A stretch of 64,000 nt of DNA, from contig JAUVAV010000003.1 of NCBI GenBank assembly GCA_030591525.1, positions 17,582 to 81,581 of the forward strand. Direction: 5' to 3'. A program made the translations under genes and the position numbers. Positions 3-15,869 of the stretch are shown piece by piece. Every line of letters starts with the position of its first letter. Position 1 is the first letter of the stretch. The DNA is from a candidate division FCPU426 bacterium (GTDB taxonomy: Bacteria; Oederibacteriota; JAAXVQ01; JAUVAV01). Below the pieces are notes generated by a model, which was not told where the DNA came from, searched no databases, and worked only from the letters and a program-made list of their open reading frames with translations.

Positions 3-3000
3 GATTCGGACCAGCTTTTCCAGGAACTGGATCTTCTGGATACAGCCATCCGCCAAAATCTTTATACCAACCAGGCTGAACGCGAACTGGATGAGCTATA
101 CCGCCGCCTGGATGTAATCGAGAAACTCCTGAATATTTCAGCCGCGTCCAAGGATTTAAACGAGTTCCGTGCCCACCGTCCGGACTTTAATGTCCGGGTT
201 TTCATGGATTTTATAAAACGCCAGGATACAACGGGTGAGTATCTCCTGGATCCCGCGGTGTATAGGCTGGATGAATACCTGGAAAGCGTAGAGAAATTTT
301 ATAGGCTCGCAGACGAACGCAGCCAACACTTTGTAGCGAATTTATACCAAAAGATGGAAGCGCGGAATGAAAAACTCGCGCTCATGATTACCGGTGGTTT
401 TCATACCCAGGAAGTATTGCAGGAGATGCAGAACCGGGATATCTCTTATGTTTCTATCACACCTTGCCTGACCCGCCGGGATATTGTTAACCCCTATTTC
501 TCACTCCTGCGAAACAAGCAGATGCCCCTAGAAAAGCTGCTGAGTAAAAACCAGGAAATCATGGCAGTGCAAACTGCGTGCCCTGATCTGCCCGGCATTG
601 AAACCAATCAGGTAGTGCCAATCTCCAGAATAAAGAGTATAACCCAGCGGACTTTTGCCAAGATGCTGGGCTTGCTTTTTAAAAATACTACTGTTGTAAC
701 CCTGCATGCCCAGGGGATTAAAACCGAAGACATTCCGGGAAATCTCGAGGAAATCCTTGGGATTTACCCGGCTAATGATCATACCCTGCGCCTGGATACC
801 GAAGCCTTTCTGAGGGAGAACACGAATATTCTGAACCGGCTGGGAAAACTGCCTTTCCTGGCTATTCCCATGCAGGCCGGCAACGAGGATTTAACCACCA
901 TAGCTTATCCGGAAGACAGCATTGCTCCCAGGCCTGATCTCATGGATCCGGCCATGCAGACCATGGATATTAATGGCTCAAAGTATTATTATTATAATAC
1001 CCGAAATATATCCGATTTGGTCGAACTCCTGGTAAAAAACCAAAAGAGTCCCTCGCTTTTATTTCTTCCGGAAATGAGCTGGTGGAACATGCTCGGGTTT
1101 TGGGGGCAGATAGCGCGACTGGCCTGGGGATTGGCAAAAGAGGGAAGAGTTTTTAAAATGCTCGCATCGGCGAGGGATGCAATAAAGCAAGTGAAATGGG
1201 CGCCAGCAATGAAATCCCTCAAAAATAAACACACTTCTCTAATGGTCCTGCTAATATCATCAACAATAATTCTCGCAGCAAACAAATATGAAACTTTGGA
1301 AGAAAAAATTAAACGGGCTGGGATGGAACCTACTGAGGAATTGATTAATAAGATAAAGCTGGAATTTACTCCGGACGAGGAATTGGAAGTTTTAAAAATT
1401 GCAGGAGAAATTAAGGAATTTATAAATGGGGGGAAGATTAAAGAAATAGGTGGAGAAAAAATAACGGATGAAATAATTATAGAAATCGCAGAATACAGAT
1501 TAAAGATCGAAAAACAAGGTAAAGACATGGGGTTAAATATTTCCGGGTTGGCTACGTATTTAGTGTTTATGTTTCCTCATGCGGGGCAATGTATAGAGGT
1601 TCTGCAATCAGCCAAGGGGATAAAAGATAAATATGGAATTCCAGAAGATGAAGCTTTAAATATCGTTGGTAGATATTCCGAAGCTAAATGGGAGCAAAAG
1701 ATCAAGCAGTGGATGCTACAAAATGCGAAATTTGAGAAAATACAGAAATATTTTCCTGAGGAAGCATTGAAAATCCAAGAAGCGGCTAATGAAATAGTAG
1801 AAAAACACGGATTGCCTTTTCAAAGTGCTCTTGACATTGCCGCCAGAACGCCTGTAGGTAAGCGTGAAAAGATAATTCGGACATTGGAAAGGTGGCAAAG
1901 GGGAACGATTTCCAAAGGCGTACTCCCTATTCCCGAAGAGTTTTTTGTTAAAAAGCTGAAGATTAACGCGTGGTTATACGATAATTATATCGCTCCGCTC
2001 TGGGAAGAGGTGGTCTTTACCGGAGTGCCGATAGTTATTGGCATGCTCTCTCCGCCCTTGTTTGTACCGGCATTCCTGGCCTTCAGGCTAGTGTTTATTC
2101 TGCTGCACTTGTTCGGCGCCCGGGCGCCGGATGGACAAGCTCTGGTGCAGAGTAACTGGCATAAATCCCGGACTGGTATCATGAAAGCTGCCAAAGCAAT
2201 TATCTCCCAATTAGCCCTGCCCACCCTTATCTCCACAGCTGTGATTATTTTAGTCAGCCCCACCCTGACCGGCCTGGCACTGGCAATAGTAATTCATCTT
2301 TTAGTTAATAACCTGCTCCAGCCTTTAATCAACTATGGGTTGGAAAAAGCAGGCACAGAGTTTCGCTTTGGAAAAGGGGCGCTTCCAGAATTGCCAGGGA
2401 TTGGGGATATTTGGAATTTACTATTTGGAAAATCTAAACCAGAGACAGTGGTATCTAAGCCAAGCTACCTAGGTGACCTATCAGAAGAAGAAATAAGCCT
2501 GGGTCCAACTCCGGAAAAAGTAAAGTTCAGCCCTAAAGCTTTTGAGTATCAGGATCCGGCACAGGACTTTCACGGCGTGGATATAGAGCACTTTGTCCGG
2601 GCGCAGGAGAAACTGGCAGCGAAGTCCCTTTCTGAGGAGCAAATTAGTAATATACTAGAACATCTCGGCATGAGCGCAAAAGATATCCAGGGAGAAAATT
2701 TATATGCATGGCTTTACCGGCAGATGGTGGCAGGAGTGAGAGGCTATTATAATAAGAGCATAATAGATACAATAAATGGGAATACATATTCTGATCCGCG
2801 GCTGGGAATTACCATTGCCGGACAGAATGAAGACCCCAAAGCCCAGGGAGTGTACGAGGCGGTTTCCAATGCGCTGGATGCTCTGGGCCTGGATATCGGG
2901 CAGTTTGGCAAGGGAGTAAAGCAGGCTGCGGATTGGCTGGAGTCTACAGGCCAAGACCGGATAGATGTTTATACCCGTTATGGCAGGGGAAATTGTCTGC

Positions 3001-6000
3001 AGCTTACGATTCTTCAAGATAAACAGGGCCAGAATTATATCCAGATAAGAACCACTACGCCTGAGAAGGTTGAAGCAGCTACGGGAAAATCCCTGAAGAA
3101 TAACAACGGGACTGTATTGAAAATAAGCGTGAAAAAGGAGATACCGGCCGAAGAAATCCCGGGCCAGATTTCCCAGGCTGAGATCGCGCAAGGGCTCAAG
3201 AAGAGATTTCCTTTTATAAGATCAGTGGAAATTTGGCTCAAGACTGCTGGCCAAAGTCACGAAAAAATAAACGGCTATAAAAATAAGAGAACTATTATTC
3301 CAGCCGGCCAGGCCGAGGCTGATAAATCCGTGTCTACCCAAGGCCGGAAGATTGAGGTTGAGTTGGATAACAATGAAATTATAGTATCTGACAATGGCAG
3401 CGGCATGGCAGCCGGCACGCTTTCCCGCATGTTCGTTCCCCAGCAGGGAAGCAAGCAGGCTGAACCTCTCAGTGGGCCGGAGGCAGAGTCCGAACTTGTC
3501 AAAGTCCAGGTAGTGCATGATGAAGACATGCCTGATGCCAGTTCCTTTTCACGCAACAAGGAGGTAATAAAGGCCATAGATATTCCTGAGCATATCCAGC
3601 CCCAAGCTGTGGTGCGCGGAGGGCTCATGCTGGAATTCGGCCGGTTACTGGATGTGCCTGAAGAACGAAACCAAATTATTATTCCCACAGGCTTGAAACT
3701 CGGGGAAGCGCTGAATTTCCAAATGGCTGTGAAATATGCTGTGAAGAAAATCATAGCCCATCCGGAACTGAGCGATGCGGACAAGCTTCGGTATATTAAT
3801 ACCATGGTAGTGGGTCTGGAAGAGCTTCCAGGCGGAAATGCGCATTACGAGCAAGCGATAAATGCCCTGCTCTCAGAGATAAAGACGAGCCTGGGTAAGA
3901 CGATAAAACGTCTGAAAAATGAAGGGTATGTAATTTTGCCGCATGACAAGTCCTTTGCCATGCTTAATCCGGGCCGGGAAAAAGTTCTTTATGCTCACGA
4001 AAAAATCTTTGACTGGCAGGGCGCTGTCAGCCTGCAGGAGATAGGAGGAGAGATTATACCGGGGATCAAACTGGGCAAAAACAATCTGCCTCTGGCCATG
4101 GCTCCATTTCGTCCGGACTTGGTTGGGAAAGTCAAGGAGTTTGACAAATCATGGCATACCTGGACGGAAGAAGAACGTCTGCCCGTGCTCGTGACCGATC
4201 GTTTCTACGCCATACCAATGGACCTGGGAGAGAGCCTGAATTACTTGATCCGCAAGCAAGCCTCCCAAGGGCTGACCGAAGAAGAGCAAAAAGACCTGGC
4301 ATCTCTGGCTGAGTGCGTGAAATATTTATTAGCCGAAAAAATACAAACCGACTACGAGGTGGGAGAGATTGAAAAAGATGTAAAAATAGAGATTTCTCCG
4401 GAGATCGAAATAAGCACCGGAAAGATTGATTCTGACGCGATTAATGCTTTTTTAACTGAGCTGCCAATGGAGGCGCAGGATGGTTTTCAAACTAAAGCTC
4501 TCATGGTTGAAAGACCCGCCGATGCTCCCTATAGAGAAGAAGTTTGTAAAACCAAGGATGGAGGATATCAACAAATACTTCCTGGTAGTTCCTTTCTGAA
4601 AAGTGAAATATATACAAGAGTTATCAAATCAAATAAAAGGGACGGGTTCCTTTTTCGGAGATCGGATGGATGGACAGATATGGGTATGGGAGTATTTGAT
4701 CGTCCGATATGGTTTGATGATATTGAATATACTGATCCAGAGGATGCGAGAAACATTATGATTCTCAAAAGCGCAGATGGCAGTAAACATTTAGTAAGCT
4801 TAATGAAAGATGAAGAGATTAAAGCCCAGGAAATACAGGTTTCCGCTTCCGGACGTTATACTGTGCATAAAAACATGGATGGTAATTTAGTATATTATGA
4901 CCATGAGCAAAAGGATTTGAAGGAAAATAAAATCCCGGATAGTTTAACCTCGTCATTAATAATAGAGGAATACCTGGCACACGACTATGCGGATGTTGTG
5001 ATAATAAAAAGCAAGGATGGCATGTATTCATTATTCGGTATGGGGGAAAGGGCATCATATGCTTCCGGGGATATAAAGCATATAGAAATCGACTCCTCCG
5101 GCCAAGTGGCGGTATTCACAGACAGTCGGGGAAGGATCACTGTATTGAATATAAAAACAGCGGAAGTGATATATAAAGATATGACCAAGAGCATAAAAAT
5201 AGCTGCTGATGACATGTATGTCTATATTAATGATGGTTCAGGTAAAATGGGAATGCTCGATAAAAAGACGGGCAAGTTTAGCAAGAAAGAGATGAAAGGG
5301 CTTTTAGATTGGAGCGCAAAATCGAGCATATTAAATTTGCCCCGGTATTGGGAAGAATATGATGGCGATAAGAAAGCAATATTAGAATGGGATGTTAATT
5401 CAGGCGATTTTACAGAAAAGATAAGCCTGAAGGCGGCCTCACCGACTTCTCCTAGAAATACTATAATGCTTCAAAAAGATAAATACTACATATCAATAAA
5501 TAGTACAATAAAGGCAGTACAAATAGAATGTCTGGAGAAAGATACCACCACAATTATGAGTTTTAAAGATGAACATAAAATGATAAAAAGCATGGATTTT
5601 CTGAAAGGGGATGAAGTTATTTACCTGGAAGACGATGATGTTTATGTGGTTGTTAATTTTCAAAGAAAAACGGGAGCGGCAGAATCAGTATTTGAAAATC
5701 TCTACAAAACCGCTGACAATGCGTTTCTAATCGGCACCAATACAAGAACCCTCAAATCTATACTTATAGATTCCAAAGGTCAAGAAACCGATATCAGCAA
5801 GCTGGCTCCGGGCTATGAGCCAGTGGATGTAAATGGCAATTATTTTGTTATGCAGAATTCGGCCGGAGAGGTTTCATACCTGGATCCGCGAAAAATCAGC
5901 GGGCCAACAACAGCGGACCTAACCAAGGACCGAGCTCCGCCTCATCCTGAGGAAATAGCACGAGCAAGGGAGGTATGGGAGAAGGAAGTTCTCAGCCACA

Positions 6001-9000
6001 GAGATGCTTTTATTGCCCAAGCCCGGACCGCGTTTCTGCCCCTGCTGGACTGTCTGGACCGGATTCCCGAGGAATACCAGGGAAAAATCCGAAACAGCAT
6101 TAAAACCGGGATTAAAAAATTATACCAGACACAAGATGCCCAAATCCGCCAAAAATATTCAGCCGCCTTAGCTGGGGAAGCGGAGTTTAACCAGCAGGAC
6201 AATTCCCTGCCTTTCAGCGTATTTGCCAAGAGAACAAATAAGCTCATGACCAGCCTGCCAGAGTTCCTGGAGCAAGTCAAGACCTGGGTGGAGCGGGAAA
6301 ATGATTATTCATGGGGAACGCTTTTTTATCAAAGTATCATGAATAATCTTATTAACCTGGCCAGGGATGATCAGATCAACCTGCCTGAATTTACCAGCGA
6401 TCATTTTCTGATCATGGGACTGGAGTATGATTTGCAAAGTCAAGAAGACCTGCAGTCCCTGGAAACAATGATGAAGTTCAGCCGTTTGCTAATATCTGAG
6501 AACCGCTTTTCCCTGGCAGCCGCGGCCGGGATAATCGGATTTCTCTCTGCAGCCATGAAGAGTGATCCGGAAAAGCGCGGCATAGTGGAAAAACAGATAG
6601 AGAAATTAATGGGATTTGAAAATGAGAATCAAAAAGTACTCTGGTCCTATTTGGAAGAAATGGCAGCCGCTTTCCAGGAAGTAGAGCCAGATATCCTAAT
6701 GCGGTACTCGGAGGATGAAGCCGCATACAGCCAATTGGGTCAAGCCAAAGAATGCGCCTTTTTTCTGACTCATGCCGTGGAAACGGTCAGGCAAAAGAGA
6801 GCATTTATCCCTAAAGGCGAGGATCTCTACAACGCATCTCCGGGAGAGGGAATACAAATATCTCAAATTAAGCAGTTGGAAGAGCAGAGACCAAAGCAAG
6901 GTCCGGACGACATAGTGATGGATATGGATTATCTAGTGGAGAATATCCAGGCGGGAAATCTGCCCGACTCATCCGATGTCCTGGAAAGGTCCATTCTCCG
7001 TGATATTGAGGTACAGCGTGAAGCAGGAGCCTATACGTCTGAGATTACCCAAAATAGTATGGACGCTACCTCGGGCAGAAAGGGAGAATTAGTTATTGAT
7101 TTTTATTGCCAAACCAACAGCCAGGGCCGGGAAGAATACGTGGAAGAGGCCACAGACAACGGTACTGGTGCGCTCCGGGAAGTGGCGCTGCTTATTCCCA
7201 AATCCACCAAGGCTGCAGGACAACAGATTGATCTGGGTGGATTTTTTGGAACTGGCAAATACACGATTTTTGATGGCGTGGATCGTTTGGAGATAATAAC
7301 CAAAAACGCGGAACGCGCTTACATGTTCTCTTTCATTGTGCGGAAAGATAAATCCGGCCAGGCCAGAACCCTGCTTTTAACAGGTATCAAGCAGGTACAG
7401 GATGAGCGGGTCGAACAGGGGGTTACCATCCGGCGCATTAAAAATAAAGAAAATACTATACCTGAGCTGGATCAAATGCTGGCGCAGAGGGCCTGGAAGA
7501 ATTTTGCCGGGCTCTCGCAGTACTTGTCCCAGCATCCGGATTTCCGGATATTCTTTATTGCCCATGAGGGTAAAAAGCAGGCCCTGCCCCTGGCAGAGCC
7601 GGAAATATTGAGCGAGGTGGAGTTCAAAGCGCTTAAACCGGAAAAAGCGGAGAAATCGTCCAGGCTGCGGATAGTAAGCACTGAGGATATACCTCTGCAG
7701 ATTGTGGACCGGGCCGGTTTGGGAGTAGGAAAAATTAAGGAAGATTATCTGGCCCTGGTGCCTTATAGTCTGCGCGGGCATTTCAAGGAACTGGGTATTA
7801 ATATCCAGATACCCCTGCCGCTCATCCGGGGCCGCAGCGCGTTTAAACATGAAAAGGAGTATCTTCCGGAGATTCGGAAATGCGTGGCCATTGGCATATA
7901 CCAGGCTCTGGCCTATAAGACTCTGACTCAAACCTCGCCCCAGTTCGTGTTTGAAGGCTTTCCGCTGGATTGGGAGACTAATGATGATTACTGGAAATCC
8001 ATTGATTTCTCAAAAGACCCGGAAGTGCAAGCGCTGGCCGAAAATATAAATGCCGGGCGCCATGAAAATATTTCCCTTCGTGATTTGGAAAAATTAATAG
8101 TGCCCAAAGGGGAAATGGACAAGGCCAAAAAGCTGGTCAAATTAATGCTCCTGCTTGAAGTGGGGATTGATCCAAAACAGCCGAATAAACGCCGAAGCCT
8201 TATAGGCCGCCGGGTCGCCATCCAGCAGGCCAAGGATAAAGCAGCTAAGGCCAGAGCCGGGGCCGAGGCTGCCCGCCTGGGTGTTTCCCAGGAAAGCATT
8301 CCAGAGCGGGATGAAATCGATAATTATGCAGCCAGAGTAAGGCAGGCAAAGGTTTTAGGAACCGCTAACCAGCAGATAGAACATCTGAAAGACTTTGAAG
8401 TCGAACCGGAAACTGAGCAGGAGCATGAATTGGTAGTACTGGCAGATAGGATGGGCGGATTATTTGGTTTGAAAAAAGTAGTGCTACTGGAAGAAAAATT
8501 TGCAATTCCGGGTTTTTTTAGCGGCAATACTATGTATCTTAATCGAAGCATTGCCCGGCAAATAGCCCGGATTGACCCGCAAGCAGGAGTTATTAATGAT
8601 GAAGCAACGCATATCATAATCCATGAACTGGCGCATTTACTAGAGCATCTGATGTTCTTGAAGATAGGACAACTGGGAAGTAAGGAGGTGTACGTGCCGG
8701 ATTCGGATTTCACGCATGATTCCATAGGCACTTTTGCCTCCTGCGTGAAATACGTGTCAGCAGTAGTTATGGCTAATAGTAAGGCTAAGATTTCGGAAGT
8801 AATAACGGATGCTCCAGCTATGGAAATCGGCAAGGGAGTGCTTCCCGCAGTACGAAAGCTGGCAGTGGAAAAATGGGGGATTAGAGGGGATATTTACGAT
8901 AATTATATCGCCCCGCTTTGGGAAGAGGGGGTCTTTACCGGTGTGCCGATAGTTATTGGGATGCTCTCTCCGCCCTTGTTTGTGCCGGCGTTTCTGGCTT

Positions 9001-12000
9001 TCCGGCTGGTATTTATTGTGCCGCACTTATTCGGTGCCCGGGCGCCGGACGGGGAAGCCCGGGTGCAGAGTAACTGGTATAAGTCCTGGACTGGAATACT
9101 GAGTAAGGCAAAAGAAATAATCTCCCAACTAACCTGGCCCACCATGATATCCATGACTCTGATTTTACTGGTCAGTCCGACCTGGCCCGGACTGGCACTG
9201 GCAATAGTAATTCATCTTTTAGTTAATAACCTGCTCCAGCCTTTAATCAACTATGGGTTGGAAAAAATAGGCACAGAGTTTCGCTTCGGCAAAGGGTTGC
9301 TTTTAACTGGTCGTGGTGTAAGCCAGGGTGGTGATTCTGGATTTCTTTCGGGAATAATAGATGAAGCTAAGAAATATGACGAGAAATCAGAAAATCAAAA
9401 TAATCCTATCCGGATATTTATGGAATTGTCGGGTTTGAAAGAAAGCCATGAAGAACTTGATGACAATCTGGCAGCGTTGTTGGAGGAGTATTTAATTACA
9501 ATATTTAATGTTCAAAATTTTGAAAAAAACACCCTCATCTATGCCAGTAAAATTAAAGAGCTCTTATACCAGCACAGCAGGGACTCTTACGGAATTAACC
9601 AAATTCAAGCCATACTTGTAAGGATGGCGGCCTGGAGAGTGAATTTAGGGAAGATCAATGTTAATGAATTTAAAGGATTTTCTGATCCTGTGAAAACCAA
9701 GGTCTCTTTGGTGCTGCTATCTGCAGCTCTTCCCGGCTTGGGCGATATAAGCAAAATAAACAGTTCTGTCCACGGCTTATACCGGGAATTCTCGCGAAGA
9801 GGTCTGGAGATTAGCATAAAAATTGTTCTCTTTGAAAAAGATAAAAAGAAATCCCGTCATATGATCGATAATCTTAAATCCAAATATCCGGCGCTGGAAT
9901 TTATTAATCTGGAGGAAAGAAGCAATAAAATTGCAGCGGGATCTGAGATAATTAAAAATACGGATATGATTATCTCGCTGGTTAGGCCGGCTGTAGAAGC
10001 AATGGAAATTGATGAAAAGCAGGCAATGCCCCGGGTAGGTATAATATTAGGCGAATATCAAGATCCGCTGAATATAGAGTCGAAAAACCGATCGATGCCG
10101 ATTTACAGAATTATTACCGGTTTTGGCGATAATGCCATGGGGTTTTTTATCAATCCATCTATAGAAAAATTATACCAATCAGTAACTAAGCTGGCCGGAG
10201 CAGAAAGATCCCGGGCCCGGAGAGAAATACTCGAAGCCATGTTAGGGGAGATCGGGTCGGCGGTTGATGGCCGGCAAGAAGTAGTTGCTCCCAAGATTAA
10301 GGACATCATTGCCCAAGCCGAATCCTCGTCCCGCTGGGGCTCAGTATATATGCATGATTTGGGAATGAAATATCTTGAAGCCCTGGATTATTATAATAAC
10401 CGGATTGCCCGGCAGAGAGAGTCATACACTATTTTTACTTCTTTCGGGAAAGAAACCCGGCTTTATTCAGATGAAAATGAATATACAAAATTAATAAAGT
10501 CAGTCAAAGAAAAAAAGTTAGACATAGAATTCATTGATCTTTCTGAAGACGTTAATAAAATAAATAAGGTTGATTTTGATAAAAAGGTTATACGCGTTGT
10601 CAATCTGGGAATGAGGTCTGAGGAGGTGTATAACCGCTTAAAGGCTTTGACTGATCTGCCGCTGGGAACTACGGGAGACGAAAGTCTATTAACCTCACTT
10701 ACTTTGCGGAAACCTTTTTTATATGAAACGGTGGATTGGAAGCTTGACTTTTTTAATGGCTTAATTGAGAGCATATTAAAATTGAAGGCTCCGCAAGATA
10801 AAAAAGACGAAATAGTAAAAATATTAACCGGTTTTACCAGCGGCGCCAATCCTGATGAAATCGCAGCGGTTTTTGATCCGGATTCTCCCTTGAAAGAATT
10901 GTTTGAACAAATGGGGGATTCTGTATCCCAAAACGACCTGTTTCCCATTCTGGGAGACCGGTTGTGGCAGTATCTTCGCGTGGCATTTCATTTCGAGAAA
11001 ATGTTAGAGGATTATCCTTTAGAAGAGAAGCATGAAAATATTCCAGCCGCTGCCCCGGATTCAAGTAGTGCCATAATTGATGCCGAGGAATTGCCGGATT
11101 CAGAAGTTCGGCTGGGCAAGCAATCGGCTTCGGTAATTAAAGCGAAAATTAGGCCGGTCCAGTGGAAAAAAATAGACGATCTTATTGAGTATATTTGGGC
11201 CGAGAATCAAAAAGGAAATTTCCCTGAGGGAATAAATTTATCGGCCTATCCAAAAAAACATGGAACTTTTGCGATTTATTATCTGATTAAAGATATCCGG
11301 GAAAAAATTGGCTATGCAGGAAAAATATCGCCGCGACATTTGTGTCCAAAAATAAATAATATTATAGGTCAACCTAAATATTATAAAAAGGAAATTGTCA
11401 CGCTAGATCGTTTTCTTATACTTGTAGCATTTTTAAATGACAAGCTAAACGCCGAAGAGTTAATAAATTATGGAAATTCGAGCGGAGAAGGATTAGCAAG
11501 ATTAGTGAGAGAAGTCGAAATGCCGGGAAGTATTTACGCGAATATGCAAGGCATCAATATCGGTCATCTTACCGGCTGGCTCAATTCCCCCAGCAAAGTC
11601 GCCGCGATTCTAAGAATCGATCCAGGGCATGCCCAATTGCTCAACTGGAATATGCCTTATATAAATATGACATGGAAGCAGTTTAAAGCGATCACGGCGA
11701 TACTAAAGGAGAAACTGAAGGCCGAAACCCTCGCCGGGTATGGCGATGAAGGCGGGGAAGGATTGGTCGCCCTGTTGGGCGAGATAGAAAGAGGAAAAAA
11801 GGCTTATGCGGATCTGCGGGGCATCAATATCAGCCATCTTACAAGCTTGCTCAATTCCCCAAGCAAAGTCGCCGGAATTCTGGGCATCGATCCATGGCAT
11901 AATCAATTAACCAACTGGAATATGCCGTATGTCAGTATGACGTGGAAGCAATTTCAGGCGATCCAGGCGATACTACATGAGAAACTAAAGGCCAAAACCC

Positions 12001-15000
12001 TCGCCGGATATGGCGATGAAGGCGGGGAAGGATTGGTCGCCCTGTTGGGCGAGATAGAAAGAGGAAAAAAGGCTTATGCGGATCTGCAAGGCATTCATAT
12101 CGGCCATCTTACCGGTTTGCTCAATTCTCCTAAAAAAGTTGCCGGAATTCTGGGAATCGATTCAGAGCATGCCCAATTGGCCAACTGGAATATGCCGTAT
12201 GTCAGTATGACGTGGAAGCAGTTTAAAGCGATCCAGGAGATACTAAAGGAGAAACTAGAAAGGGGCACCCTCGCCAGGTATGGCGATGAAGGCGGGGAAG
12301 GATTGGTTGCACTATTGAGCGAGATAGAAATAGGAAAAAAGGCTTATGCGGATTTGCGAGGCATCCATATCGGCCAGCTTACCAGCTGGCTCAATTCTCC
12401 TAAAAAAGTCGCCGGAATTCTGGGAATTGGAGAAGGGCATGCCCAATTGGCCGACTGGAATATGCCAAAAGTTGATATGACGTGGAAACAATTTCAGGCG
12501 ATCCAGGCGATACTACATGAGAAACTAAAGGCCAAAACTCTCGCCGGATATGGCGATGAAGGCGGGAAAGGATTAGTCGCACTGTTGAGAGAGATAGAAA
12601 GTAGAGACAACGCTTATGCTGATCTGAGAGGTATCCATATCGGGCAGCTTACCGGCTTGCTCAATTCTCCTAAAAAAGTCGCCGGAATTCTGGGAATTGG
12701 TGCCGGGGAGGCCCAATTGGCCGACTGGAATATGCCAAAAATTAATATGACGTGGAAGCAGTTTAAAGCGATCCAGGCGATGCTACATGAGAAACTAAAG
12801 GCCAAAACCCTCGCTAGGTATGGCGACGTAGGCGGGAAAGGATTGGTCGCCCTGGTGAGAGAGATAGAAAGTGGGGACAACGCTTATGCGGATCTGCGAG
12901 GCATCCATATTGGCCCGCTTACCGGCTTGCTCAATGATCCTAAAAAAGTCGCCGGAATTCTGGAAATTGGTGTCGAGCATGCCCAATTGACCGACTGGAA
13001 AATGCCTTATGTCGATATGCCGTGGGAGCAGTTTATTAGGGAAAACAAAATAAAACCAGACATGTCAGCCGTCTCTGAACCGGCAGATGCTGGCAATCTC
13101 CTGGCACGCGAGGGAGTTATGCCTTTTCTTGGGGCTTTAGTTCTGGCAAGTGCGGCATCCCTGGCAGCTGGCCCGGGCTTTACCACGGCGGCACTTATAC
13201 TGGCAGGCTTTTTAGGAATCCGCACCCTGATAACTGGTATATTGGAATGGCTGATTCACGGGCATCTGCTAAGAGGTGGGCCGGAGGAGCCCGGTTTAGT
13301 GCACGTGGTGGATGGAAAAATCCGCCTTAATTTGCAAATCCCGGCAGAATCTCCCTTCTGGCAAAAATCCCTGATTTATATCCTGGTCGGCCCGGCTCTG
13401 CTTGCCGGTTCAATCCATGAAGCAATACACAAGCAATTTTCCTCGGAAATCATGGCCTATGGCCTGGAATCCGCAATAATCCTGGCAGTCCTGACGCTGC
13501 TCTCCCCGGTCTTCTGGCTGCCGGCCTTGATGGGTCTGTTTATCACCGCTTCTGTAATAATGAGAGATGACGGAAAGGAAATGCAGGAGAGAAAAACAGA
13601 GATCAAGCCAAGAGACAGGGGCCGGGTTTTATACGGTCAGAATGAGCAAATAAATCAACGCAGTGAATATTTAGACAATCATCCTTTGATTCGCCAATGG
13701 GTTGTAATGCCGTTATTTGGCCTGTTGTTATCATTCGCCGGGATTATGTCCATCCACAAGGTTCAGGGTAAGCCGGATAGTTCATACGTCCAGGTTAAGA
13801 ATATAAATGCCTACCAAAAAATCATAAAAATAAAGATCAGCCATGGACATGAAAGCAGGTTGATCGACGTTGCCAACCTCAAGCCGGATCAGCTTGAAAA
13901 AATAGCGGACCGGATTATCTTGAAACCTTTCGCGACTACGGGATGGAGAAGCTGGCTCCAAAATATTCGGGGAATGCTTTGGGGATATTCACGGATACAG
14001 ATCAATGAGGAAGGAGAAATGGAGATCCATCTGGCAAGGCGTATTCTGGCCTCTTTGGATTTGACCGCAGAACAGCCAGGCCGCGCGCCTAAATACGGCT
14101 TAGAAGCACGGCTGGCAAAGCTGGCTGAGACTCAGTTAAAGCGAATAATAGAGCATCAGACCGCAGGGCATGTTAAGCGCATTAAGGCCGGGATAGCACG
14201 GCAGGCGGATGGGTTTGATCTTTTTGATGAGGTGCTCCTGAATACTATGGAGGAAAATCCCGAAAAAGAAGTTATTTTAAACCAAGGCCCGAGCATGCGC
14301 CAGGCCTTGGAGCGGAAGAAGATAATAGTGGGCCCGCAGGCCGTGCCATTGATTTTCATGAATTTTTTAAACCGTTTACCGGTCCGCGGCCGCAGGCCTG
14401 GAAATTTATTCAATAGTGAGAACTTGCCGGAGCAGCTCAGCCTGGACATGGCGAAAAACCGGGATGAGCTAAGAGAAAGAGCCCAAGCCGGGGAAGCGAA
14501 TCCGCTGGACTCCCACCCATTCTGGGCGATTATGCCGGGTATTGAAAAACTGTTAAAAGTATCGAATACGCTGGAGTCGCCGTTACGGACCTTTCTTCAG
14601 GAGTTCGGGCAGGTGGATAACCAGAATGTCCAAAGGTTGGCGGAAATAGGCGCGATGGAAATAGCGGCCAGGGAAGGAAGCGATCTTAGCTGGATGCAGC
14701 AATCCGGGGATGAGGCAGGTGTTTCCGAGTTGACTACCTTGGCTTGTCCTGAGACTGCCAAGTTTATGTTGGATAAACTTTATACAATTGACACAGCGGA
14801 TATGAAAACAGATATGCAGGACACGCATAAAACCTTGATAACGATTTTAGAGGCAATGACCGGATATCAAACGGGAGATGTTGTTCACATTGATGGAGAA
14901 ACCGGCCGGATTTTAGCCAGGAAACTTGCCGGACAGTACACTGATACTCCGGCAGGAGCGTCCAGCGCGGCAGTAATGGAAATTGGCAGGAAAGGTGCGG

Positions 15001-15869
15001 ATAAACAGCAGAAAGTTTATGCCCTAGTAACCTCTGGGATGCAAACCAACAGTGTGGAGATAAACGGCCGGACGCTGAGATTTACTATGCCCGAGGTTGC
15101 GGAAGTAACCAGCGAAGAAAACGTTGGAACAGTTGCTGTGCAGGCAGCAACCGGCATATTGCAGGGAAGAGTATTCCGGGGCAGAATTCGTCCGCTATTA
15201 CCCCAAGCGCGAAATCCGGAGGAGAAGCTGGGCTTCCTGGTATTGCCGATATTAAAACTGACGGATAAATTGCCGCTAAGAAGCAAGTATGGGATTCATG
15301 TTTGGGCGCAGCGCTCTAATCCGATTGGCTACTTAAATTATGTCCAGAGACTGCTTCCGGAAGTAGTCCAAGACTCGGGTCTTTATAAAGAACTCTTTAC
15401 GCCGGGAAGCCAATACCGTGAGTTATACCGCATCATGGCAGCAACGGATCCCAAAGACCGGAGAGCTTTTTACCGGGCCCAGAGTGATGTTATAAATTAT
15501 ATGCGTCTTTATATGCGAAATTATTATGAAATATACGGCCGGATTTCTGAAGAGGTGGGAGCTCAATATATTTCCCCAGAGCATAGACAGGCAAATATGC
15601 TGAATCTGAGATTTTTTAATGAGCTGGTTATTAGCATGGGTTCAATTATCGAGGTAGATGATTTCGCGGAAATGGAATTAAAAGCAGCAGCCGATAGCCG
15701 TGCTCCGGAAAAGATGTCCCTGGCAGCGGTTTTAATGGGCCCAGGACACCGCGGGGCCCTGGGCGGGTTTACCAAGTTTTTGGAAGAACATGGTTATGCG
15801 ATAAGCAAGGAGGTTGAGGATTTATTCAACCGCAAGCGGATACGCATGTCGCATGTTTCGTCAGTGTGA
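3..15869 (+). CDS. Giant multidomain membrane-associated protein, 5'-partial (>5,280 aa)
   Basis: The frame of ORF 204..15869 stays open back to nt 3 (DSDQLFQELDLL...), so the true start lies upstream of the window. Motifs: ITGGFHT (GGFH at 393-404), two CPBP-like modules, two GHKL-like modules, HELAH (8622), HEAIH (13416), a GT-B-like region, 90-aa repeats and several hydrophobic segments. Confidence 0.93.
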   Translation, partial: DSDQLFQELDLLDTAIRQNLYTNQAERELDELYRRLDVIEKLLNISAASKDLNEFRAHRPDFNVRVFMDFIKRQDTTGEYLLDPAVYRLDEYLESVEKFYRLADERSQHFVANLYQKMEARNEKLALMITGGFHTQEVLQEMQNRDISYVSITPCLTRRDIVNPYFSLLRNKQMPLEKLLSKNQEIMAVQTACPDLPGIETNQVVPISRIKSITQRTFAKMLGLLFKNTTVVTLHAQGIKTEDIPGNLEEILGIYPANDHTLRLDTEAFLRENTNILNRLGKLPFLAIPMQAGNEDLTTIAYPEDSIAPRPDLMDPAMQTMDINGSKYYYYNTRNISDLVELLVKNQKSPSLLFLPEMSWWNMLGFWGQIARLAWGLAKEGRVFKMLASARDAIKQVKWAPAMKSLKNKHTSLMVLLISSTIILAANKYETLEEKIKRAGMEPTEELINKIKLEFTPDEELEVLKIAGEIKEFINGGKIKEIGGEKITDEIIIEIAEYRLKIEKQGKDMGLNISGLATYLVFMFPHAGQCIEVLQSAKGIKDKYGIPEDEALNIVGRYSEAKWEQKIKQWMLQNAKFEKIQKYFPEEALKIQEAANEIVEKHGLPFQSALDIAARTPVGKREKIIRTLERWQRGTISKGVLPIPEEFFVKKLKINAWLYDNYIAPLWEEVVFTGVPIVIGMLSPPLFVPAFLAFRLVFILLHLFGARAPDGQALVQSNWHKSRTGIMKAAKAIISQLALPTLISTAVIILVSPTLTGLALAIVIHLLVNNLLQPLINYGLEKAGTEFRFGKGALPELPGIGDIWNLLFGKSKPETVVSKPSYLGDLSEEEISLGPTPEKVKFSPKAFEYQDPAQDFHGVDIEHFVRAQEKLAAKSLSEEQISNILEHLGMSAKDIQGENLYAWLYRQMVAGVRGYYNKSIIDTINGNTYSDPRLGITIAGQNEDPKAQGVYEAVSNALDALGLDIGQFGKGVKQAADWLESTGQDRIDVYTRYGRGNCLQLTILQDKQGQNYIQIRTTTPEKVEAATGKSLKNNNGTVLKISVKKEIPAEEIPGQISQAEIAQGLKKRFPFIRSVEIWLKTAGQSHEKINGYKNKRTIIPAGQAEADKSVSTQGRKIEVELDNNEIIVSDNGSGMAAGTLSRMFVPQQGSKQAEPLSGPEAESELVKVQVVHDEDMPDASSFSRNKEVIKAIDIPEHIQPQAVVRGGLMLEFGRLLDVPEERNQIIIPTGLKLGEALNFQMAVKYAVKKIIAHPELSDADKLRYINTMVVGLEELPGGNAHYEQAINALLSEIKTSLGKTIKRLKNEGYVILPHDKSFAMLNPGREKVLYAHEKIFDWQGAVSLQEIGGEIIPGIKLGKNNLPLAMAPFRPDLVGKVKEFDKSWHTWTEEERLPVLVTDRFYAIPMDLGESLNYLIRKQASQGLTEEEQKDLASLAECVKYLLAEKIQTDYEVGEIEKDVKIEISPEIEISTGKIDSDAINAFLTELPMEAQDGFQTKALMVERPADAPYREEVCKTKDGGYQQILPGSSFLKSEIYTRVIKSNKRDGFLFRRSDGWTDMGMGVFDRPIWFDDIEYTDPEDARNIMILKSADGSKHLVSLMKDEEIKAQEIQVSASGRYTVHKNMDGNLVYYDHEQKDLKENKIPDSLTSSLIIEEYLAHDYADVVIIKSKDGMYSLFGMGERASYASGDIKHIEIDSSGQVAVFTDSRGRITVLNIKTAEVIYKDMTKSIKIAADDMYVYINDGSGKMGMLDKKTGKFSKKEMKGLLDWSAKSSILNLPRYWEEYDGDKKAILEWDVNSGDFTEKISLKAASPTSPRNTIMLQKDKYYISINSTIKAVQIECLEKDTTTIMSFKDEHKMIKSMDFLKGDEVIYLEDDDVYVVVNFQRKTGAAESVFENLYKTADNAFLIGTNTRTLKSILIDSKGQETDISKLAPGYEPVDVNGNYFVMQNSAGEVSYLDPRKISGPTTADLTKDRAPPHPEEIARAREVWEKEVLSHRDAFIAQARTAFLPLLDCLDRIPEEYQGKIRNSIKTGIKKLYQTQDAQIRQKYSAALAGEAEFNQQDNSLPFSVFAKRTNKLMTSLPEFLEQVKTWVERENDYSWGTLFYQSIMNNLINLARDDQINLPEFTSDHFLIMGLEYDLQSQEDLQSLETMMKFSRLLISENRFSLAAAAGIIGFLSAAMKSDPEKRGIVEKQIEKLMGFENENQKVLWSYLEEMAAAFQEVEPDILMRYSEDEAAYSQLGQAKECAFFLTHAVETVRQKRAFIPKGEDLYNASPGEGIQISQIKQLEEQRPKQGPDDIVMDMDYLVENIQAGNLPDSSDVLERSILRDIEVQREAGAYTSEITQNSMDATSGRKGELVIDFYCQTNSQGREEYVEEATDNGTGALREVALLIPKSTKAAGQQIDLGGFFGTGKYTIFDGVDRLEIITKNAERAYMFSFIVRKDKSGQARTLLLTGIKQVQDERVEQGVTIRRIKNKENTIPELDQMLAQRAWKNFAGLSQYLSQHPDFRIFFIAHEGKKQALPLAEPEILSEVEFKALKPEKAEKSSRLRIVSTEDIPLQIVDRAGLGVGKIKEDYLALVPYSLRGHFKELGINIQIPLPLIRGRSAFKHEKEYLPEIRKCVAIGIYQALAYKTLTQTSPQFVFEGFPLDWETNDDYWKSIDFSKDPEVQALAENINAGRHENISLRDLEKLIVPKGEMDKAKKLVKLMLLLEVGIDPKQPNKRRSLIGRRVAIQQAKDKAAKARAGAEAARLGVSQESIPERDEIDNYAARVRQAKVLGTANQQIEHLKDFEVEPETEQEHELVVLADRMGGLFGLKKVVLLEEKFAIPGFFSGNTMYLNRSIARQIARIDPQAGVINDEATHIIIHELAHLLEHLMFLKIGQLGSKEVYVPDSDFTHDSIGTFASCVKYVSAVVMANSKAKISEVITDAPAMEIGKGVLPAVRKLAVEKWGIRGDIYDNYIAPLWEEGVFTGVPIVIGMLSPPLFVPAFLAFRLVFIVPHLFGARAPDGEARVQSNWYKSWTGILSKAKEIISQLTWPTMISMTLILLVSPTWPGLALAIVIHLLVNNLLQPLINYGLEKIGTEFRFGKGLLLTGRGVSQGGDSGFLSGIIDEAKKYDEKSENQNNPIRIFMELSGLKESHEELDDNLAALLEEYLITIFNVQNFEKNTLIYASKIKELLYQHSRDSYGINQIQAILVRMAAWRVNLGKINVNEFKGFSDPVKTKVSLVLLSAALPGLGDISKINSSVHGLYREFSRRGLEISIKIVLFEKDKKKSRHMIDNLKSKYPALEFINLEERSNKIAAGSEIIKNTDMIISLVRPAVEAMEIDEKQAMPRVGIILGEYQDPLNIESKNRSMPIYRIITGFGDNAMGFFINPSIEKLYQSVTKLAGAERSRARREILEAMLGEIGSAVDGRQEVVAPKIKDIIAQAESSSRWGSVYMHDLGMKYLEALDYYNNRIARQRESYTIFTSFGKETRLYSDENEYTKLIKSVKEKKLDIEFIDLSEDVNKINKVDFDKKVIRVVNLGMRSEEVYNRLKALTDLPLGTTGDESLLTSLTLRKPFLYETVDWKLDFFNGLIESILKLKAPQDKKDEIVKILTGFTSGANPDEIAAVFDPDSPLKELFEQMGDSVSQNDLFPILGDRLWQYLRVAFHFEKMLEDYPLEEKHENIPAAAPDSSSAIIDAEELPDSEVRLGKQSASVIKAKIRPVQWKKIDDLIEYIWAENQKGNFPEGINLSAYPKKHGTFAIYYLIKDIREKIGYAGKISPRHLCPKINNIIGQPKYYKKEIVTLDRFLILVAFLNDKLNAEELINYGNSSGEGLARLVREVEMPGSIYANMQGINIGHLTGWLNSPSKVAAILRIDPGHAQLLNWNMPYINMTWKQFKAITAILKEKLKAETLAGYGDEGGEGLVALLGEIERGKKAYADLRGINISHLTSLLNSPSKVAGILGIDPWHNQLTNWNMPYVSMTWKQFQAIQAILHEKLKAKTLAGYGDEGGEGLVALLGEIERGKKAYADLQGIHIGHLTGLLNSPKKVAGILGIDSEHAQLANWNMPYVSMTWKQFKAIQEILKEKLERGTLARYGDEGGEGLVALLSEIEIGKKAYADLRGIHIGQLTSWLNSPKKVAGILGIGEGHAQLADWNMPKVDMTWKQFQAIQAILHEKLKAKTLAGYGDEGGKGLVALLREIESRDNAYADLRGIHIGQLTGLLNSPKKVAGILGIGAGEAQLADWNMPKINMTWKQFKAIQAMLHEKLKAKTLARYGDVGGKGLVALVREIESGDNAYADLRGIHIGPLTGLLNDPKKVAGILEIGVEHAQLTDWKMPYVDMPWEQFIRENKIKPDMSAVSEPADAGNLLAREGVMPFLGALVLASAASLAAGPGFTTAALILAGFLGIRTLITGILEWLIHGHLLRGGPEEPGLVHVVDGKIRLNLQIPAESPFWQKSLIYILVGPALLAGSIHEAIHKQFSSEIMAYGLESAIILAVLTLLSPVFWLPALMGLFITASVIMRDDGKEMQERKTEIKPRDRGRVLYGQNEQINQRSEYLDNHPLIRQWVVMPLFGLLLSFAGIMSIHKVQGKPDSSYVQVKNINAYQKIIKIKISHGHESRLIDVANLKPDQLEKIADRIILKPFATTGWRSWLQNIRGMLWGYSRIQINEEGEMEIHLARRILASLDLTAEQPGRAPKYGLEARLAKLAETQLKRIIEHQTAGHVKRIKAGIARQADGFDLFDEVLLNTMEENPEKEVILNQGPSMRQALERKKIIVGPQAVPLIFMNFLNRLPVRGRRPGNLFNSENLPEQLSLDMAKNRDELRERAQAGEANPLDSHPFWAIMPGIEKLLKVSNTLESPLRTFLQEFGQVDNQNVQRLAEIGAMEIAAREGSDLSWMQQSGDEAGVSELTTLACPETAKFMLDKLYTIDTADMKTDMQDTHKTLITILEAMTGYQTGDVVHIDGETGRILARKLAGQYTDTPAGASSAAVMEIGRKGADKQQKVYALVTSGMQTNSVEINGRTLRFTMPEVAEVTSEENVGTVAVQAATGILQGRVFRGRIRPLLPQARNPEEKLGFLVLPILKLTDKLPLRSKYGIHVWAQRSNPIGYLNYVQRLLPEVVQDSGLYKELFTPGSQYRELYRIMAATDPKDRRAFYRAQSDVINYMRLYMRNYYEIYGRISEEVGAQYISPEHRQANMLNLRFFNELVISMGSIIEVDDFAEMELKAAADSRAPEKMSLAAVLMGPGHRGALGGFTKFLEEHGYAISKEVEDLFNRKRIRMSHVSSV
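1977..2378 (+). repeat. Duplicated CPBP-like (CAAX protease/Abi) membrane module, copy 1
   Basis: Colinear without indels with 8895-9296 (offset 6918); 75 bp are identical (2274-2348 = 9192-9266). Encodes APLWEEVVFTG ... FILLH ... IVIHLLVNN. Confidence 0.9.
8895..9296 (+). repeat. Duplicated CPBP-like membrane module, copy 2
   Basis: Encodes APLWEEGVFTG ... FIVPH ... IVIHLLVNN; near-identical DNA to 1977-2378. Confidence 0.9.
11439..13035 (+). repeat. Six tandem 270-bp (90-aa) coding repeats inside the giant ORF
   Basis: Units start at 11439, 11709, 11979, 12249, 12519 and 12789; GATGAAGGCGGG recurs at 11745, 12015, 12285 and 12555. Consensus is roughly EKLKAKTLAGYGDEGGEGLVALL.EIE.GKKAYADLRGIHIG.LTGLLNSPKKVAGILGI...HAQL.NWNMP.V.MTWKQFKAIQAILH. 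Confidence 0.95.

Follow-up and report, generated by a model that had tools for sequence, protein, structure and literature searches.

The 64,000-nucleotide (nt) window of DNA analyzed here, which comes from a candidate division FCPU426 bacterium and corresponds to contig C43:17582-81581 of the source genome, begins within a giant open reading frame (ORF) whose product carries two copies of a small membrane module; at a confidence that we place close to even, these modules are read as a minimal CPBP-type protease cassette that is set in a giant mosaic membrane protein and probably processes that protein itself. Descent of the modules from the CPBP superfamily, judged from their sequences, is considered probable. 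A first-pass annotation of the same DNA had described a colinear repeat (1977-2378 and 8895-9296) within one protein, both copies of which do lie in frame in the giant ORF (Table 1), and had pointed out the motifs EE (PLWEE), FxxxH, and HLLVNN, all present in both copies, as well as a threonine where the CPBP signature EExxxR has its arginine, which is likewise true of both.

Module anatomy and probable kinship to CPBP proteases

Nine modules were aligned (relatives share 25-32% identity), and the columns that are invariant among them, namely P24, E27, E28, F57, H61, P99, and H124, amount to the catalytic Glu-Glu, His, and His of CPBP proteases, the Phe of FxxxH, and two prolines. The Asn of motif 3 is retained in all aligned modules except one, which has Ser, and the His of the same motif never varies. 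An AlphaFold2 model of the module, built from this nine-sequence alignment, shows a short amphipathic helix followed by four long ones, with disorder in the central loop and in the C-flank, and has a mean predicted local distance difference test score (pLDDT) of 64.8 for the module and 80-88 for helices 1-2. In the predicted placement, EE opens helix 1, FxxxH closes helix 2, and HxxxN falls within helix 4. The hairpin turns (SPP and SPT) are uncharged, and Lys and Arg residues occur nowhere but in the central loop and the N- and C-flanks; the loop, the two termini, and all three motifs are accordingly assigned to a single membrane face. In module 2, Pro and Trp have been substituted beside the motif-2 His and in helices 3-4. 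Judging by the positions of the boundary tetrapeptide described below, the full unit slightly exceeds the interval first reported.

The threonine in motif 1 forms part of a reciprocal pattern. Of 29 true CPBP domains drawn from the phylum, 28 have the Arg of EExxxR, none has an Arg at position -7 from the motif-2 His, and 26 have a small residue (Gly, Ser, or Ala) at that position. The modules, by contrast, lack the motif-1 Arg throughout (0 of 11), mostly having Thr in its place (Thr here; Thr, Ala, Gly, or Tyr in relatives), and 10 of the 11 carry an Arg at -7 from the motif-2 His (RxxFxxxH). This reciprocity suggests that the guanidinium group of EExxxR has been relocated to the adjacent helix and not lost.

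Established CPBP profiles recur among the matches to the family. Within Pfam, module 1 matches PF02517 best (profile positions 7-91 of 93; 14.5-16 bits; E 0.016-0.045), and four of the nine diverged members match that family, with a best E of 4.4e-4; no other family recurs comparably among the nine, and NCBIfam CPBP models are among the top matches (MrtJ, E 0.0019; MrtC, E 0.066). When the source genome was searched in six frames with PF02517, two true CPBPs were followed by module 1 (17.1 bits, E 0.01), and the pattern P..EE..[FYW] ... F...H ... H...[ND], applied to 1.55 million six-frame residues, matched the two modules and one true CPBP only. Alignment of the module profile with 29 CPBP domains of the phylum by hhalign yielded a local score of 25 (P 0.0017), as compared with P >= 0.31 for 30 column shuffles; the global alignment pairs EE, FxxxH, and HxxxN colinearly, although global-mode probabilities are meaningless and the local score and shuffles were used instead.

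The two copies, their boundaries, and the giant protein

A repeat search returned one two-copy direct family (1977-2276 and 8895-9194, 6918 nt apart), and the ungapped alignment of 1977-2378 with 8895-9296 (402 nt) shows 85.1% nucleotide and 84.3% amino acid (aa) identity, falling to background (20-40%) within 30-60 nt beyond either end. The source genome (2.7 Mb) has just these two copies. The identical stretch of 75 nt that had been noted earlier was confirmed as the longest identical run between them; since such a run at 15% divergence would be expected by chance only ~0.002 times per module (by our own arithmetic), and since the ratio of nonsynonymous (dN) to synonymous (dS) substitutions is 0.22 overall and 0.08 over helices 1-2, which contain motifs 1 and 2, the repeat is not ascribed to chance. 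The underlying Nei-Gojobori estimates for module 1 versus module 2 are dS 0.43 and dN 0.095, and the low ratio indicates that both copies have long been maintained by selection.

The age of the duplication differs along the module. Comparison was made with P0008, the syntenic orthologue of the giant in a sister species, whose single module is, by both flanks, the orthologue of module 2. Over the first 98 codons, dS between modules 1 and 2 is 0.585, as against 0.32 between module 1 and the P0008 module; over the last 36 codons, dS between modules 1 and 2 drops to 0.12, and each is saturated relative to P0008 (dS >1.4). The earlier description of the modules as recently duplicated thus applies to the last 36 codons, but not to the first 98 codons or to the module as a whole. 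A simple recent tandem-like duplication was rejected because dS over the 5' two-thirds exceeds dS to the orthologue; read from these substitution patterns, the history is a mosaic, the 3' third having recently undergone gene conversion long after an old duplication or acquisition, and the 75-nt run marks the conversion tract.

A deletion form of the giant is represented by a 5,148-nt metagenomic contig (L041; JGI 3300040952, Ga0451423_074678) that is 99.8% identical upstream. At its positions 2094-2495, the left part of module 1 is joined to the right part of module 2 with the crossover exactly inside the 75-nt identical run, such that the 6.9-kb module-plus-cargo unit is missing; 120 nt within an array of 270-nt tandem repeats are also skipped. 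The contig may represent either a natural loop-out or an assembly collapse at the repeat.

Relatives of the module are few and always large or fragmentary. A two-copy profile searched with HMMER against 1.84 billion representative sequences recovered six proteins: a deletion form of the giant itself (P0002); P0003 (883 aa, truncated where its contig ends), which belongs to a Candidatus Firestonebacteria metagenome-assembled genome (MAG); P0004 (4,720 aa, three modules); P0005 (3,537 aa, two modules); P0006 (3,979 aa, one module); and an 88-aa fragment. No free-standing small relatives were found at E <= 0.01. Among 99 genomes of the phylum the module was found solely in the window's own genus, and a locus search with four sequences returned one genome locus (in the Candidatus Firestonebacteria MAG) and one metagenome locus. 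Two further sequences are recorded here as observations. Another genome of the same genus has a far more divergent paralogous module (G001:C13:6721-7092; E 8e-4), whose ORF is at least 1,010 aa long, with motif 1 reading WLEN (Glu-Asn, not Glu-Glu) and with FWIVH and HALVNN retained; and residues 680-770 of P0005, directly after its head, are hydrophobic and read WEVVF ... LLFALPH ... VLHLIYE, a stretch that might represent a degenerate module with a single Glu, missed by the profile.

The giants have in common only a signal peptide, a head of ~400-600 residues (HxQDxHxN ... GGFHT), and the modules. The cargo of P0004 includes four protein-kinase domains, a metallophosphatase, and an ABC1 kinase, and that of P0006 consists of TPR repeats. 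P0008 (3,483 aa), which is flanked by groES/groEL and TonB-receptor genes at 86-90% nucleotide identity, has other cargo between its head and its single module and lacks the counterpart of window positions 9670-10989, so that cargo varies on both sides of module 2. The suggestion of a mobile cassette next to cargo, made in the first-pass annotation, is borne out to the extent that relatives have the head and modules in common, that their cargo differs, and that the orthologue has one module.

Both modules are bounded on either side by a tetrapeptide, K-G-h-h, in which h is a hydrophobic residue. The strict form KG[VAL][LI] occurs at five sites in the 5,561 residues of the giant, four of which are the module boundaries. 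Across the family, K-[GA]-h-h (background frequency ~0.002 per residue) precedes YDN by 21-24 residues (nominal position -21) in 8 of 10 modules and follows the motif-3 His by 20-28 residues (nominal position +26) in 9 of 10. Matching end motifs on the active-site face, partly in a predicted disordered linker, are what would be expected of a self-excising protease; the pair could also act as a structural clasp. The K-G-h-h tetrapeptides are candidate processing sites, and self-cleavage at them is rated as somewhat unlikely.

Table 1. Positions of the giant ORF, its modules, and their motifs in the window
Feature	Position	Strand	Description
Giant ORF	3..15869	+	Window covers 5,288 of 5,561 codons; open at 5' end
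Head domain, window part	3..1136	+	Motifs HIQDLHCN, GEEGA, TGGFHT (390-407)
Module 1, full unit	1914..2384	+	KGVL, amphipathic helix, YDN, four membrane helices, LEKxG..FRFG, KGAL
Inter-module cargo	2385..8831	+	~2,150 aa; missing from orthologue P0008 and contig L041
Module 2, full unit	8832..9302	+	KGVL ... KGLL
Motif 1	Module 1, 1995..2021; module 2, 8913-8939	+	PLWEEVVFT; PLWEEGVFT; EE invariant
Motif 2	Module 1, 2085..2108; module 2, 9003-9026	+	RLVFILLH; RLVFIVPH; FxxxH plus Arg at -7 from His
Motif 3	Module 1, 2295..2312; module 2, 9213-9230	+	HLLVNN; HxxxN
K-G-h-h boundaries	1914-1925; 2373-2384; 8832-8843; 9291-9302	+	KGVL; KGAL; KGVL; KGLL (h = hydrophobic)
Identical 75-nt run	2274-2348 = 9192-9266	+	Covers helix 4 and motif 3

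The true ATG of the giant ORF precedes window base 1 by 817 nt (contig C43:16765), and the frame remains open over 16.7 kb to encode 5,561 aa. The N-terminus of the product (MKKITRPADF...LLISLAFLLPCLSWA/FD) resembles a Sec signal peptide ending SWA/FD, an end that is also kept in P0003 and P0008. The head that follows, which is closed by a Trp-rich helix (1080-1136), is common to P0003, P0004, P0005, P0006, and P0008 (phmmer/blastp) and has no match in Pfam or NCBIfam. Its AlphaFold2 model (pLDDT 68.5) gave the erythromycin esterase EreC (6xcs/6xcq) as the top Foldseek match (E 0.011, prob 0.87, template modelling score ~0.2), and its motifs, HxQDxHxN ... GGFHT, resemble the paired His motifs of the TIKI/TraB/ChaN/erythromycin-esterase superfamily; a weak assignment of the head model to an Ere/TIKI/ChaN-type fold may be offered. 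The inter-module cargo has two GHKL-ATPase-like regions, with N-box/G1 motifs at 2853-2882/3387-3407 and 7041-7067/7152-7172; the motifs were read in the sequence, and the HATPase_c match (E 0.002) is under the cut-off. No SecA-like domain was detected in the giant.

Three further features of the giant are listed as observations. A soluble HExxH (IIIHELAHLLEH) is found at 8622-8636, ~70 residues upstream of the KGVL boundary of module 2, and an HEFGH of P0008 sits at a comparable distance before its module in cargo that is otherwise not alignable. A third, unrelated membrane cluster of ~5-6 helices (13150-13900; giant aa 4639-4860), with no Pfam match, contains HEAIH (13416-13430) within a hydrophobic helix and EWLIHGH (13245-13265), motifs that P0008 largely keeps as HETVH and EWLIHGQ; by its motifs, this cluster could be a second, HExxH-type intramembrane protease-like module. 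Lastly, six tandem repeats of 270 nt (90 aa), 80-87% identical, occupy 11457-13034, and a similar array is present in the orthologue.

Proposed mechanism and competing explanations

Under the proposed mechanism, the module would be a very divergent minimal member of the CPBP/Rce1 group, equivalent to transmembrane helices 4 to 7 (TM4-TM7) only. It would consist of two helical hairpins that are nearly loopless on the far side, placing the N-flank, the central loop, and the C-flank on one face together with Glu-Glu, His, and His...Asn, residues to which CPBPs owe the activation of water and the oxyanion hole; the role of the EExxxR Arg would probably pass to the conserved Arg that lies two turns ahead of the motif-2 His. 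The likeliest substrates would be the juxtamembrane K-G-hydrophobic-hydrophobic linkers at the module's own two boundaries, and cuts at those sites would detach the enzyme blocks from the membrane, so that the giant would be a membrane polyprotein in a bacterium. As DNA, the module would offer portable homology for gene conversion and for the gain or loss of cargo blocks. CPBPs are now treated as glutamic-type intramembrane proteases, with a TM4-TM7 core and assigned residue roles (PMC11980579), and the CPBP protein MroQ needs Glu and His (10.1101/516906). That the modules are catalytically active glutamic-type intramembrane endopeptidases is put at somewhat short of an even chance; they are taken as active because the polar residues do not vary between sequences of 25-30% identity and because purifying selection acts on both copies. 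The fullest version of the proposal, in which self-excising cassettes release ATP-dependent blocks (GHKL ATPases in the giant, Ser/Thr kinases and a phosphatase in a relative) and module DNA serves as a cargo-swap joint in several uncultured phyla, is rated as rather unlikely.

Several results weigh against this reading. No profile match reaches a curated cut-off: the PF02517 score of module 1 falls under the gathering threshold of 22.4 bits, and module 2 has no PF02517 match. An hidden Markov model (HMM) of our own, made from the 29 CPBP sequences and run over 15,721 windows, gave module 1 an E of 0.64 and second to third place among the non-CPBP windows, and the module HMM searched against all ORFs of the genome misses the full-length CPBPs; no significance is claimed from either search. 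By hmmsearch against PDB, no Rce1 was found, the only match being a chance one to an insect odorant receptor (E 5.3). Similarly, a Foldseek search of the module model (pLDDT 64.8) against PDB returned nothing at E < 5 and no Rce1, a blank that is attributed to the low confidence of the model and to the difficulty that all-helical membrane bundles pose for 3Di prefilters. The module also lacks the three N-terminal helices of Rce1 and the family-defining Arg of EExxxR, several bacterial CPBP proteins (SpdC, Abx1, and CflP) work without catalysis, and the topology signals conflict. The first-pass annotation had named a PF02517 match and structural modelling of a metal site as checks on its CPBP assignment. 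The profile check fell short (16 bits versus 22.4), the structure check gave no Rce1, and metal-site geometry was itself set aside as a dated test because CPBPs are regarded as glutamic proteases (PMC11980579). Its claim of CPBP likeness is supported at twilight level, carried by PF02517 as the best family, the MrtJ and MrtC matches, and the invariant motifs, and opposed by the sub-threshold scores and the Foldseek blank.

With regard to topology, the signal peptide puts the head outside, whereas the positive-inside rule and the ATP-dependent cargo favor cytoplasmic flanks for the modules; P0003 and P0004 have no helix between the head and the first module. A weakly hydrophobic segment, TSLMVLLISSTIILAA (Kyte-Doolittle 1.36), is found at 1233-1280, between the head and module 1, and by its composition could cross the membrane once more and so invert the topology; no such segment occurs in P0003, P0004, or P0008.

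Alternatively, the modules might be unrelated to CPBPs and represent a lineage-specific four-helix anchor with convergent motifs, perhaps a metal-, proton-, or lipid-binding site. Every profile score below its curated threshold, the non-significant reverse searches, and the lack of a sequence or Foldseek match in PDB are all in keeping with such an origin, and hydrophobic helices inflate weak matches; we nevertheless consider it unlikely, as independent models (PF02517, MrtJ, and MrtC) recur as top matches for different diverged members, the PF02517 alignment is colinear from end to end, the hhalign score is well above those of the shuffles, the three motifs are ordered on helices 1, 2, and 4 at one membrane face, and the motif triad is specific genome-wide. 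A more serious competitor, still of distinctly lower probability than an active protease, accepts CPBP descent and holds that the modules are inert, serving as a membrane staple or regulator that pins enzyme blocks, or docking or gating ATPase and kinase blocks, with the conserved polar residues contributing to folding or binding. Precedents have been published, given that SpdC and Abx1 act non-catalytically (10.1101/516906), as does CflP (PMC13692083); the loss of the motif-1 Arg, the reduction to a bare four-helix core, the Pro/Trp substitutions of module 2 near the motif-2 His and in helices 3-4, and the proximity of the modules to GHKL-like ATPase blocks in the giant and to protein kinases in P0004 would all suit such a role, which the sub-threshold scores also keep alive. 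Known non-catalytic members, however, usually lose or dispense with their catalytic residues, whereas here EE, His, and His are invariant at 25-30% identity and dN/dS over helices 1-2 is 0.08; the Arg, moreover, looks moved and not lost, and a plain anchor leaves the same K-G-h-h at both boundaries unexplained.

An artefactual origin, in which the second copy or the 6.9-kb spacing would reflect a chimeric join of strains or loci at the shared repeat, finds a foothold in contig L041, whose join of modules 1 and 2 inside the 75-nt run means that at least one of the two assemblies differs at the repeat. It is nevertheless very improbable: the two copies diverge at 15% of their bases and are flanked by unique sequence, the 16.7-kb frame runs uninterrupted through both junctions, the substitutions show purifying selection, and P0004 and P0005 independently have two to three modules per protein, while the 120-nt skip suggests that it is L041 that may be a collapsed assembly.

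Relation to known systems and significance

The closest comparison for the modules as CPBP-type proteases is with the CPBP/Rce1 proteins themselves (PF02517; MmRce1, 4CAD; MroQ; and the myxosortases MrtX, MrtJ, and MrtC), with which they have in common the four-helix core (predicted for the modules), the order EE/FxxxH/HxxxN, and the placement of these motifs on the same face. They differ in scoring below the cut-offs, in having the Arg at -7 instead, in lacking the extra N-terminal helices, in being always embedded, often two to three times, in proteins of 3,500-5,600 aa, and in their K-G-h-h boundaries. The Abi/CPBP regulators (SpdC of S. aureus, Abx1 of group B Streptococcus, and CflP) act on GHKL-ATPase kinases, and the modules adjoin GHKL-like blocks; these regulators, however, are separate, small proteins with catalytic residues that are lost or dispensable, whereas the modules stand in cis and their residues are invariant. 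As in MARTX-type toxins, with their cysteine protease domain, and in viral polyproteins, with their self-excising proteases, a protease-like domain lies within the chain that would be its substrate, between interchangeable enzyme blocks, and has the same short motif at both of its own boundaries; the fold and chemistry are unrelated (intramembrane glutamic versus soluble Cys/Ser), and the likeness is one of logic only. Unlike a secreted toxin, moreover, the giant probably resides in the inner membrane.

Among giant bacterial proteins, the 'Archaeovorins' of Omnitrophota (10.1101/2023.11.21.568195) are comparable in being very long mosaics of enzymes with many transmembrane regions, but belong to another phylum (the present proteins being of Firestonebacteria type), and the peptidase domains considered there for possible processing were C39 and S8 only. 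Whether giant proteins are cleaved was explicitly left open in that work (West-Roberts et al., bioRxiv 10.1101/2023.11.21.568195), the text of which mentions neither CAAX, CPBP, nor TIKI. More broadly, no mention of CAAX, CPBP, Rce1, or TIKI was found in the giant-gene papers examined, and a search of the literature turned up no account of CPBP modules within giant proteins. What the present case adds is the relocation of the Arg, the boundary tetrapeptide, the conversion tract with its matching deletion form, and the syntenic orthologue with one module.

Whether bacterial giants operate as single chains or as cut pieces is the question to which an Arg-less CPBP-type module inside such proteins speaks. 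If the proposed reading is true, the CPBP superfamily would come to include a form reduced to four core helices in which the arginine has been relocated, which would inform the debated mechanism of glutamic intramembrane proteases; on the fullest version of the proposal, the giants would be bacterial membrane polyproteins that bring their own means of maturation and evolve in modular fashion. Should the modules prove inert, the giants would still form an undescribed mosaic family, composed of a signal peptide, an Ere/TIKI-like head, membrane modules, and variable cargo, in which intragenic repeats drive the turnover of cargo.

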